Part shown: in pieces, positions 23,404 to 27,521 of the stretch
How positions within the stretch are numbered: position 1 is the stretch's first letter
How the letters are laid out: the number at the start of each line of letters is the position of its first letter
NCBI GenBank assembly: GCA_963767275.1
Contig: CAVYDL010000005.1
Span: 401,533 to 465,532, forward strand
Length of the DNA: 64,000 nt
Source of the DNA: an uncultured delta proteobacterium
GTDB taxonomy: Bacteria; Desulfobacterota; Binatia; UBA9968
Direction: 5' to 3'
Translations under genes and position numbers: made by a program
The notes under the pieces: generated by a model
Seen by the model: only the letters and a program-made list of their open reading frames with translations
The model's database searches: none
What the model was told of the DNA's origin: nothing

Positions 23404-24381
23404 TTAAGGACGAAGCTTCCTGCGGAAGTTTTCGTAGAGATCATCGAATATCGCAGTGGCACGCGCAAGCCGCGCGTCGTCATCTCTATGTGCCATAGCG
23501 ATTCCGTCGATCAGTCGGGCTATGCCTATAGTTTCTTCCCGTTCAAACTTCGAGTCTTTCAGGTCGATGTCGTGGACAATTTCGGCGATCCTAACGAGGC
23601 CAGGATCACGAATCCCCGTTCGCATCATTAATACTTCCATTGAACAGCAGTCGTTCTCATGTGTGAACTCCGCCTCAAACATATCGAATCGGATTTCATC
23701 GTGTAGCGGCGTGTATCCTTTGGCGGGAACGAACTTGATGCGAGCTTCAGGATCGATGAAGCGCCGGACTACCCAGGCGGTAGCCATTCGATCGACATGG
23801 ATACCCGTTCGGGTTACCCAAGTCTTACCTCGTAAATCATTAATGTTTGTTTTGCCCTCGGATGTCGGGCCAGCTTTATTGTCGCGCAAGCGCGCCTCGA
23901 TGCCGGAGAGCAGCCCAGTTGCCGCCTCACGGCCGGGCGCGCCAAAGAAATCGATGGCAACCGCTTCATCCAGGTGGCGCTTTAGTCGCGCGAGGTCGAG
24001 TTCAAGCTGCGGCCGATTCTTTTTACCGAGCTTCCCTTGGGGACTGACAGTCTTGGCTATCCGGCGCGCACCCTCGGCGATCTGGTCGTAATCGGCCGTG
24101 CGAGATACTTGGAACAGTGCTTCGACTTCATCATCGTTAATCCCATCAACCAACCGCGCCTCACACAGCGTGCCGTCTCCGCCACCTTCGACGATCTCGC
24201 GCAATACCCATTGGAAGTCTTCTTGCGACTGATCGCTTTTAGGGAGGACGTATACGGAATTTTTGATAGCTACCGCGCCGAGCCGTTGCAGGCGGCGCCA
24301 AATTTTGACGCGTAGGTAACTCGGCTTTGGCGGGATCTGGTGAATCAATAATAACCAGCGGATGTCGTCGGATTCTTTCAT
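23404..24381 (-). CDS. chrB: chromate resistance protein ChrB
   Basis: N-terminal WLLLIHQIPPKPSYLRVKIWRRLQRLGAV...VYVLP; divergent from chrA. Confidence 0.8.
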   Translation of the reverse strand: MKESDDIRWLLLIHQIPPKPSYLRVKIWRRLQRLGAVAIKNSVYVLPKSDQSQEDFQWVLREIVEGGGDGTLCEARLVDGINDDEVEALFQVSRTADYDQIAEGARRIAKTVSPQGKLGKKNRPQLELDLARLKRHLDEAVAIDFFGAPGREAATGLLSGIEARLRDNKAGPTSEGKTNINDLRGKTWVTRTGIHVDRMATAWVVRRFIDPEARIKFVPAKGYTPLHDEIRFDMFEAEFTHENDCCSMEVLMMRTGIRDPGLVRIAEIVHDIDLKDSKFEREETIGIARLIDGIAMAHRDDDARLARATAIFDDLYENFRRKLRP

Positions 24382-24492
24382 TGATTTTCTTGACAGGAGA
24401 AACAGTTGTTATATACGTGATACATTCGTCCTATGCACCCATCGCTAGTTTATACTGTCTCGACCTTTAACTGAAACAGGGAATGTTCTGCG

Positions 24493-25731
24493 ATGGAACC
24501 TTTAGGCCGGCAAGCCCAAGTGGCAGGCAGCGCGGCTTTTATAGCGCCCGATCCGCGAATCCGCTTGTGGTCGCTCATCGGCTACTTCCTCAAACTAGGC
24601 ACTATTGGTTTTGGCGGACCAGTGGCATTGGTCGGTTTCATGTACCGTGACCTAGTCGAGCGTCGCGGTTGGATCACCGAGGATACCTACAAGCTTTCCC
24701 TCGCGCTGGCGCAGATAATGCCCGGGCCGCTGGCTGCACAGACGGCGATTGCGATCGGATATTTCGAGGGAGGCATTCTCGGCGCCACGCTGGTTGGTCT
24801 CGCGTTCATTATCCCGTCGTTCCTGATGGTCGTCGGGATTTCGCTTGCCTACGTCGCCTACGGCGGTCTTTGGTGGATGCAGGCGCTTTTCTATGCGATC
24901 GGCGCCACCGTGATTGCGATCATCGCCATTGCGGCCTACAAGCTCGCGCGCAGCACCAATAAACGCGAGCCGTTGCTTTGGGCCATTTTCGCCGTTCTGA
25001 CGGTTGTTACGGTATGGGCGCAGGCCGAGCTGGCGGAGTTCTTTATTGTTGCCGGTCTTGTCATGCTGCTCTCCCATGCGTGGCCTGGTTGGCGTGTTGG
25101 TTCGCTCATGACGTTGGGCGCGGCAACTCTGGCGGCTACGATTTGGCTGCTTGAGGCCTGGCTGCGTCAAGCCGGCACCACGGCCGGTTCCCAAGATTTA
25201 CTTGTGCAGATACTCTTATTCTTCACTAAAGCCGGCGCTTTTGTATTTGGCAGCGGGCTGGCAATCATTCCATTTTTGCAACAGGGTGTCGTACAGCAGT
25301 TCGGCTGGCTGAACCAGCACCAATTCCTCGACGCCGTCGCGGTCGCGATGATCACCCCCGGGCCAGTCGTCATCACCGTCGCTTTCATTGGATTTCTGGT
25401 AGCCGGCTTCGCAGGCGCGGTGATGGCCTCGATCGGTATTTTTCTGCCGGTATATGTCTTCACGATCGTGCCAGCTCCGTGGTTCAAACGACATCGCGAT
25501 AATCCGCAGCTCAAGGCCTTCGTCGATGGCGCCACGGCCGCTGCAACGGGAGCGATTACCGGCGCAGTCATTGTTCTCGCAATGCGCGCGATCACCGACT
25601 GGACAACGGCGACCATCGCACTTGTCAGTTTTGCTGTGCTCTGGCGCTACAAGATTTCCGAGCCGATTATCGTAACGATCTCAGGCGTGATCGGTTTGAT
25701 TCTTTGGCCACTGCTGCGCGGCGGGTCATAG
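24493..25731 (+). CDS. chrA: chromate ion transporter ChrA (CHR family)
   Basis: Two CHR half-domains with GTIGFGGPVA and AFVFGSGLAIIPFLQ; about 12 TM. Confidence 0.85.
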   Translation: MEPLGRQAQVAGSAAFIAPDPRIRLWSLIGYFLKLGTIGFGGPVALVGFMYRDLVERRGWITEDTYKLSLALAQIMPGPLAAQTAIAIGYFEGGILGATLVGLAFIIPSFLMVVGISLAYVAYGGLWWMQALFYAIGATVIAIIAIAAYKLARSTNKREPLLWAIFAVLTVVTVWAQAELAEFFIVAGLVMLLSHAWPGWRVGSLMTLGAATLAATIWLLEAWLRQAGTTAGSQDLLVQILLFFTKAGAFVFGSGLAIIPFLQQGVVQQFGWLNQHQFLDAVAVAMITPGPVVITVAFIGFLVAGFAGAVMASIGIFLPVYVFTIVPAPWFKRHRDNPQLKAFVDGATAAATGAITGAVIVLAMRAITDWTTATIALVSFAVLWRYKISEPIIVTISGVIGLILWPLLRGGS

Positions 25732-25740
25732 GCAGGAAGC

Positions 25741-26868
25741 ATGTCTCACGGAAAGAGAAACTCTATGGCACACGATGTCTGCGAACGCATTGCAGTTGTC
25801 TACCCTGGTGATTATGCGGAAAGAACGAAGGCAACAGCCGAAAATAACCGGTTCATAGACTTGTTCGGAGCCTTTGCCGCCCAAGGGATACATGCGGTAC
25901 CGGCGGTTTACCGTGATGATTTTAGCGCGGAAGTTCACGCTCAACTGATGCGCGTAGACGCCGTTCTCGTCTGGGTCAATCCTATTCAGGACGGGCGCAA
26001 TCGGTCTGTTCTCGATGCCATGCTTCGCGAGGTGGCCACTGCAGGAATTTTTGTCAGCGCGCATCCCGACATCATCCTGAAGCTGGGCACGAAGGAAATT
26101 CTATACCGAACGCGCAATATGGGGTGGGGGAGTGAGACTTATCTCTATAACAGCATGGAACAAGTGCGTCAGGAATTGCCCGCTCGCTTGGCAATCGGAA
26201 AAGCCCGCGTACTCAAACAATACCGCGGTAACGGCGGATCTGGCGTTTGGAAAGTGCAATTGCCGATGGGCGACTTTACGAGCGCTGAACAAGGTAGTGT
26301 CGGGCCTTTGCAGGCTGAAACGATCGTTCGCGTCCGCCATGCACAACGCGGCTGCAGTGAAGAAGAGATCATGTTAGGCGAATTCTTTGCACGATGTGAG
26401 GAATATTTTCTCGCGGACGGCCGGATGATTGACCAGGCGTATCAAGAACGGCTCCCCGACGGCATGATTCGCTGTTATCTCGTGCAGGAAAAGGTGGTCG
26501 GATTTGGCCACCAGGCTATCAACGCATTATTCCCCGCGCCTTCCGGCGCAGCGCCGACAGACGCCCCCCAACCTGGACCCCGCTTATACCATCCGCCCAC
26601 CAAGCCGGAATTCCAGGCTCTGAAACAGAAGTTAGAGCATGAGTGGTTACCGGCGCTGCAGCAGCTACTTGAAATCAACACCGAGAGCCTTCCCATTCTT
26701 TGGGATTGCGATTTTCTCCTCGGGCCGAAGGACGAATCCGGCGAAGACAGGTATGTGCTTTGCGAAATCAACGTCAGCAGTGTTGCGCCGTATCCTGAAT
26801 CTGCGGTGCACTACATCGTTGATGCGACGGTGGCTCGGGTACAATCGACGAGACAGAGACGCGTTTGA
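25741..26868 (+). CDS. ATP-grasp domain protein (RimK-like ligase fold), function unknown
   Basis: Motif VLKQYRGNGGSGVWKV and C-terminal LCEINVSSV resemble ATP-grasp signatures; 10 nt downstream of chrA. Confidence 0.45.
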   Translation: MSHGKRNSMAHDVCERIAVVYPGDYAERTKATAENNRFIDLFGAFAAQGIHAVPAVYRDDFSAEVHAQLMRVDAVLVWVNPIQDGRNRSVLDAMLREVATAGIFVSAHPDIILKLGTKEILYRTRNMGWGSETYLYNSMEQVRQELPARLAIGKARVLKQYRGNGGSGVWKVQLPMGDFTSAEQGSVGPLQAETIVRVRHAQRGCSEEEIMLGEFFARCEEYFLADGRMIDQAYQERLPDGMIRCYLVQEKVVGFGHQAINALFPAPSGAAPTDAPQPGPRLYHPPTKPEFQALKQKLEHEWLPALQQLLEINTESLPILWDCDFLLGPKDESGEDRYVLCEINVSSVAPYPESAVHYIVDATVARVQSTRQRRV

Positions 26869-27521
26869 ATGTCTAAAACCTCCGGGCAGGATATCGCTTC
26901 AAACGCGGCCTTCTCTTGGGCGCATTGATCGCCGTGTATCCGAGAAGATCAAAAGGATGGTGATTACTTGGTTGAAACGGTTTGCTAATTAACCAGACGC
27001 GAGCGCCGTCACTTTGGGCTCGGCGCCTTAAGGGTTTCATTGCTGCAATTTCGTCATCGCGCGCCTTGGCCTGTTGACGCGGTTGCGCAACACCTTTGTC
27101 TGTTCGTCGGCTATGACCATGCGGCCTGTTGCACCGGGCGCCTCGGTCTTGTACCGGACCGCAATATTCATGTCTCCGCTCGCCATGGATTGCACAGTTA
27201 TCGACTCAACCGATGGCTAAGTCTTTCCACTGTTAATCGGTGCTTCACTTCCGGCCCTCCCCGGTTTTTGTAGCTTTTAATTCGCGTTGATCGCGCAAAT
27301 CAATCTTACCCGGCTATAAGGTTTTACGAAGTCTCCGGGCGCGCATGCCCAATTTTCACCGGCATTTTAGGAGCCGCACTCACTATTCTGTGGCACACAT
27401 GCTGCGTTGACTTTCTTTAGTCAGCGCCCGGAGTTAGCTCGTCGTAAGTTCATCAACTTTTGGTTTTGGAGTCGGCATTCGCCGTGTATTAGTTAACAGC
27501 GAAAATGGAGTTATTATCACG

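Follow-up and report, generated by a model that had tools for sequence, protein, structure and literature searches.

A predicted ATP-grasp ligase of the Cj0069/DUF6815 family encoded beside chrA, a candidate helper in chromate resistance

The 64,000-nucleotide stretch of delta proteobacterial DNA analyzed here (the window) carries, directly downstream of the chromate transporter gene chrA, an ORF that belongs to the uncharacterized Cj0069/DUF6815 family and has an ATP-grasp (glutathione-synthetase-like) fold. We consider it rather probable that the product acts in the cytoplasm as a carboxylate-amine ligase of the ATP-grasp type, is expressed together with chrA and serves as an accessory in chromate stress, and the gene is a candidate for a chromate-resistance helper that has no name so far.

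The surroundings of the ORF (Table 1) constitute a complete chr locus, since chrA is accompanied by a divergent chrB encoding both ChrB_N and ChrB_C domains; a CHR-superfamily ChrA, which scores 359.4 bits against NCBIfam TIGR00937 (cut-off 171.7), is thus found with an adjacent ChrB regulator (23404–25731). The chrB gene was absent from the preliminary description of this DNA. That description had the ORF begin 10 nt past the chrA stop, in agreement with the TAG ending at 25731 and the ATG at 25741, and the 9 nt between them are too short for a promoter or terminator. A second in-frame ATG at 25765 (M9) corresponds to the annotated start of P0001, a homologue of 367 aa with 96% identity, and would give an ORF of 367 aa and a 33-nt gap to chrA, again an operon-like arrangement. 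The co-transcription with chrA that had been suggested is predicted both from the gap here and from overlapping or tightly spaced equivalents in other loci.

Table 1. Features of the chr locus and of the Cj0069-family ORF, in coordinates of the window.
Feature	Coordinates	Strand	Basis or detail
chrB, homologue of the chromate-responsive regulator, divergent from chrA	23404–24381	-	Pfam ChrB_C 144.8 bits and ChrB_N 54.8 bits
Conserved block between chrB and chrA, candidate shared promoter/operator	24389–24428	+	Alignment with loci L001, L002, L003 and L005
chrA, long-chain chromate ion transporter, 412 aa	24493–25731	+	Two PF02417 CHR domains (255.5 bits)
Spacer of 9 nt from chrA stop to ORF ATG	25732–25740	+	Inside a purine-rich stretch (taGGCAGGAAGc)
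Cj0069-family/DUF6815 ORF, 375 aa, predicted three-domain ATP-grasp ligase	25741–26868	+	
N-terminal pre-ATP-grasp (Rossmann-like) domain, residues ~16–115	25786–26085	+	Secondary structure of the model
K159 (predicted ATP-phosphate lysine) and flexible Gly-rich loop VLKQYRGNGGSGVWKV	26209–26256	+	Residues 157–172, translation
C-terminal ATP-grasp subdomain (Pfam DUF6815), residues 240–348	26458–26784	+	Holds R244, D322/D324 and E342-x-N344
CEIN, predicted Mg2+-binding E-x-N motif	26761–26772	+	Residues 341–344, translation
Hairpin with a 10-bp perfect stem across the ORF stop codon, then a pyrimidine-rich tract	26860–26907	+	Fold

The conserved block in the chrB-chrA spacer contains TTGACA (24390–24395), a TATA-rich -10-like sequence (~24410–24417) and GAAACA/GATACA half-repeats; a strict sigma-70 consensus scan did not pick it up, and a search of the same spacer for inverted repeats found none. 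Consensus scans for promoters and terminators gave nothing convincing, including no terminator-like site at the chrA-ORF junction, and Rfam and tRNA scans of the whole window returned no matches. The hairpin at the end of the ORF, which the terminator scan did not detect and whose region has a non-significant z-score of -0.62, is with low confidence a possible weak terminator.

The ORF scores 346.2 bits against NCBIfam NF033816 (Cj0069 family protein; cut-off 150), its residues 16–367 spanning model positions 1–333 of 334, and 115 bits against Pfam DUF6815 over residues 240–348. Among the 8000 candidates scored in a search of 5.8 billion proteins at least 7989 are homologues, and these scores and homologue numbers indicate that the ORF is a genuine gene and did not arise by chance. 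The family comprises 1700 clusters at 50% identity (E ≤ 1e-3), and the ORF differs from it in nothing and is a member. The family name carries no function or fold, and the literature on Cj0069 treats the Campylobacter jejuni protein only as hypothetical or antigenic. Domain fusions offer little more, with TIR_2 in one member and other extended members having no extra domain.

The ATP-grasp relationship is visible only through profile-profile and fold comparison. DUF6815 was the sole Pfam match of the ORF at E ≤ 1, with no curated ATP-grasp model (RimK, GSH-S_ATP, ATP-grasp_3) among the hits; NCBIfam at the same threshold gave no link to ATP-grasp enzymes, and phmmer of the ORF and hmmsearch with profiles of two alignments (A1 and A2) against PDB sequences yielded chance hits only (a capsid protein and ribosomal protein S8). 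The comparison of profiles by hhalign was informative for GshB only with the diverse alignment A2, which matched the Escherichia coli enzyme with E 4.7e-5 and 68% probability (query 69–356, GshB 77–314); the shallow A1 (Neff 1.6) aligned the EIN motif alone, at 9% probability. The check by Pfam and HMMER that the preliminary description proposed for its ATP-grasp assignment thus gave no such match. With RimK, hhalign reached only 12% probability (31 columns). A first AF2 model, built on 70–96%-identical homologues, was mediocre (pLDDT 69) and was replaced by one based on A2, in which the predicted fold has three domains and the nucleotide site lies where the central alpha+beta domain faces the C-terminal one. 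Structurally, the ORF is closest to the GshB/DcsG/LysX-ArgX/RimK branch, and its best structural and profile matches are the small-molecule enzymes DcsG and GshB.

The ATP-grasp hallmarks reported earlier, the Gly-rich loop and CEIN, lie where the preliminary description had put them (residues 157–172 and 341–344). Invariance was scored over 42 diverse members with identity down to 33%. K118 and K159, invariant in this set, align with GshB K125 and K160; in the hhalign alignment VLKQYRGNGGSGVWKV pairs with GshB IILKPLDGMGGASIFRV, with RGNGGSG (residues 162–168, in which G163 and G166 are invariant) opposite DGMGGAS. The pLDDT block means at residues 161–180 are 82–90, lower than elsewhere, which fits a mobile lid. 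Farther along, Q232 pairs with GshB Q198 and R244 with GshB R210 (hhalign, A2), and LCEINVSS aligns with LTEINVTS, placing E342/N344 opposite E281/N283. D322, D324, E342 and N344 are likewise invariant; around D324 hhalign loses the register, and the pairing of this residue with GshB D273 depends on strand position only. In the N-terminal domain, a loop (VWVNP...R88) with invariant P81 and R88 and nearly invariant W78 (A2), whose VWVNP is set opposite GshB MRKDP by hhalign, is a probable acceptor or substrate site. The functions of the GshB residues are established from structure 1gsa, and the invariance of their counterparts down to 33% identity argues for an active enzyme.

Despite this likeness the ORF is not a GshB orthologue: it has no match to the GshB models of Pfam and NCBIfam and is ~60 residues longer than E. 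coli GshB (PDB 1gsa), including a Pro-rich loop at 265–288. Moreover, Campylobacter, in which the Cj0069 family is present, presumably lacks glutathione, and C. jejuni, the bearer of the namesake gene, presumably makes none, which speaks against a simple glutathione-synthetase role for the family. DcsG, the D-cycloserine synthetase (PDB 6jil), cyclizes O-ureido-D-serine; it shares 14% identity with the ORF, dcs biosynthetic genes are not nearby, and nothing suggests such chemistry here.

The preliminary description had made conservation of the chrA-ligase pair in other genomes a test of its reading, and the pair does recur, in several phyla and on plasmids. A ChrA, ChrB or ChrF-like gene lies within 6 kb of the family gene in 13 of the 80 species-level genome loci and any chr accessory family nearby in 16, and in a tree of the family the chr-linked members belong to several distinct clades. 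On plasmids, chr genes occur within 6 kb in nine of the 11 contexts examined, including Ti plasmids and Tn3-type transposons, whereas only 3.7% of plasmids carry ChrA homologues; among six distant metagenomic members, one sits in a chrB-chrA-SOD-Cj0069 operon. These counts are not phylogenetically independent, since several loci represent one Binatia/'delta' lineage and several plasmids share one transposon. The carriers of the chr-linked gene include Alpha- and Betaproteobacteria, Binatia/'delta' MAGs, Chloroflexota and Planctomycetota, as well as one MAG contig binned as Streptomycetaceae. The family gene keeps to the chr divergon while its direct partner varies: in the window it follows a chrA divergent from chrB, whereas in loci L008 and L050 it follows a chrB divergent from chrA, and in sphingomonad Tn3-type transposons the order is chrB-chrA-SOD and then the family gene. 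On pTiKerr27 and pTiCA74_95 it overlaps chrA by 4 nt, and in locus L041 it overlaps a 3keto gene by the same length.

The chrB and chrA core of the window is shared with the classical chr determinants of Cupriavidus metallidurans pMOL28, Ochrobactrum tritici TnOtChr (chrBACF) and Arthrobacter FB24 (chrA/B/J/K/L), and related loci additionally have SOD (ChrC-like), ChrB_C-only (ChrF-like), YVTN propeller (ChrK-like) and DUF1259 (ChrL-like) genes. In sphingomonads the locus forms a Tn3-type transposon with the same build as TnOtChr. Of the Arthrobacter genes, chrJ encodes an MQO-like protein, chrK a beta-propeller protein and chrL an LppY/LpqO lipoprotein (PMC2751784), and it is by nearby propeller (ChrK-like) and DUF1259 (ChrL-like) genes that these loci can be recognized as true chromate determinants. 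ChrF of O. tritici has a mass of 17 kDa and resembles a stand-alone ChrB_C domain (PMC4779226); we considered and rejected ChrF as the identity of the ORF, given this size and a primer-encoded N-terminus (MKWITRE) that matches stand-alone ChrB_C proteins. None of the named chr genes belongs to the Cj0069 family, whereas the terminal gene of the window does. The earlier statement that known chr operons lack an ATP-grasp ligase consequently holds for the named genes but not for sequenced plasmids, where the pair is already present with the homologue annotated as a Cj0069 family protein. Cupriavidus plasmids carry chrA, and none was among the hits of the ORF. A literature search on DUF6815, on ATP-grasp enzymes with chromate resistance and on chr plasmids and transposons found the link unreported, and turned up neither expression data nor mutants that bear on a chromate role of the gene; the link is unnoticed rather than absent, public plasmids labeling the partner only by its family name.

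Much of the family resides elsewhere in genomes. In roughly 80% of the 80 genome loci the family gene has no chr neighbor, and a search for a universal neighbor across loci found none, so that the core function of the family is not chromate-specific. This is what would be expected of an ATP-grasp ligase with a general stress or housekeeping duty, brought next to chr genes by shared metal-resistance islands, transposons and plasmids, and several chr-linked copies are indeed found on metal islands or Tn3-type transposons that also carry mer, CDF, CsoR-like and HupE/UreJ genes, while two distant members adjoin other metal genes (NicO-like; a CsoR/RcnR-like repressor). We nevertheless regard this explanation as unlikely: the gene lies within the predicted chr transcription unit, with 9-nt gaps or 4-nt overlaps, and not just on the same island; at least eight gene orders occur across several phyla; the loci include chromosomal MAG contigs of 180–550 kb with mobile-element genes not nearby; and in an unbiased Pfam census the chr families are jointly the commonest neighbors.

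The chemistry could also differ from that of a small-molecule ligase. A protein-modifying enzyme of the RimK, LysX-ArgX or TTL type would add amino acids onto a partner carboxylate, for example that of a neighboring ChrB_C/ChrF-type protein or SOD. We judge this quite improbable, however, as the best matches are small-molecule enzymes and the RimK alignment is weak, the locus has no S6- or LysW-type partner, no LysW-like carrier gene or partner with an acidic C-terminus is encoded in the window (ChrB ends in ...RRKLRP and ChrA in ...LLRGGS), and no single partner is constant across loci. A kinase with the ATP-grasp fold (ITPK1, PPIP5K or synapsin-like), phosphorylating a small molecule instead of ligating it, is very improbable, given that kinases rank below ligases among the matches and that the GshB-type Gly-rich lid is conserved together with R244, the equivalent of the acyl-phosphate residue R210 in GshB.

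For a carboxylate-amine ligase, the course of events that we infer, from co-transcription and ChrB regulation through enzyme activity and substrate to a role in chromate resistance, would begin with a transcript that starts with chrA and has the ORF as its last gene. This transcript would run divergently from chrB and would probably be under ChrB control, so that the ligase would be made along with the chromate pump. By analogy with the GshB/DcsG/LysX-ArgX/RimK branch, ATP would bind between the central and C-terminal domains with its phosphates held by K118 and K159 and Mg2+ by D324, E342 and N344, and the Gly-rich loop (162–168) would close over the site. A substrate carboxylate would be converted to an acyl-phosphate, stabilized by R244, and a nucleophile placed by the N-terminal loop (VWVNP...R88) would attack it to form an amide bond. 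The most probable role would be to synthesize or replenish a protective small peptide or amino-acid conjugate, such as a thiol or another redox-active or chelating compound that intracellular Cr(VI) reduction uses up.

Chromate resistance is usually put down to ChrA efflux, ChrB regulation and scavenging of reactive oxygen species, and most accessory chr genes are poorly understood. A conserved and, judging from its residues, apparently active ligase in chr operons points to an undescribed ATP-consuming biosynthetic or repair step. Tentatively, and with less confidence than we place in the role of the ORF itself, we suggest that Cj0069/DUF6815 ligases may be an unrecognized enzymatic part of chr determinants, needed against the chemistry of Cr(VI) reduction, and that they would either produce or regenerate a small molecule (a peptide or conjugate) or act on a partner protein of the ChrB_C/ChrF type. 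The same operon is present in cultivable hosts, among them Agrobacterium tumefaciens Kerr27 (pTiKerr27), Novosphingobium sp. ES2-1 (p4) and Sphingomonas sp. R1 (pR1b), in which this hypothesis is directly testable. Taken together, a DUF family that includes a C. jejuni antigen gains a fold, a map of catalytic residues and a testable context, and the proposal, if true, would provide the first function for the whole family and add a biosynthetic arm to the chr system.

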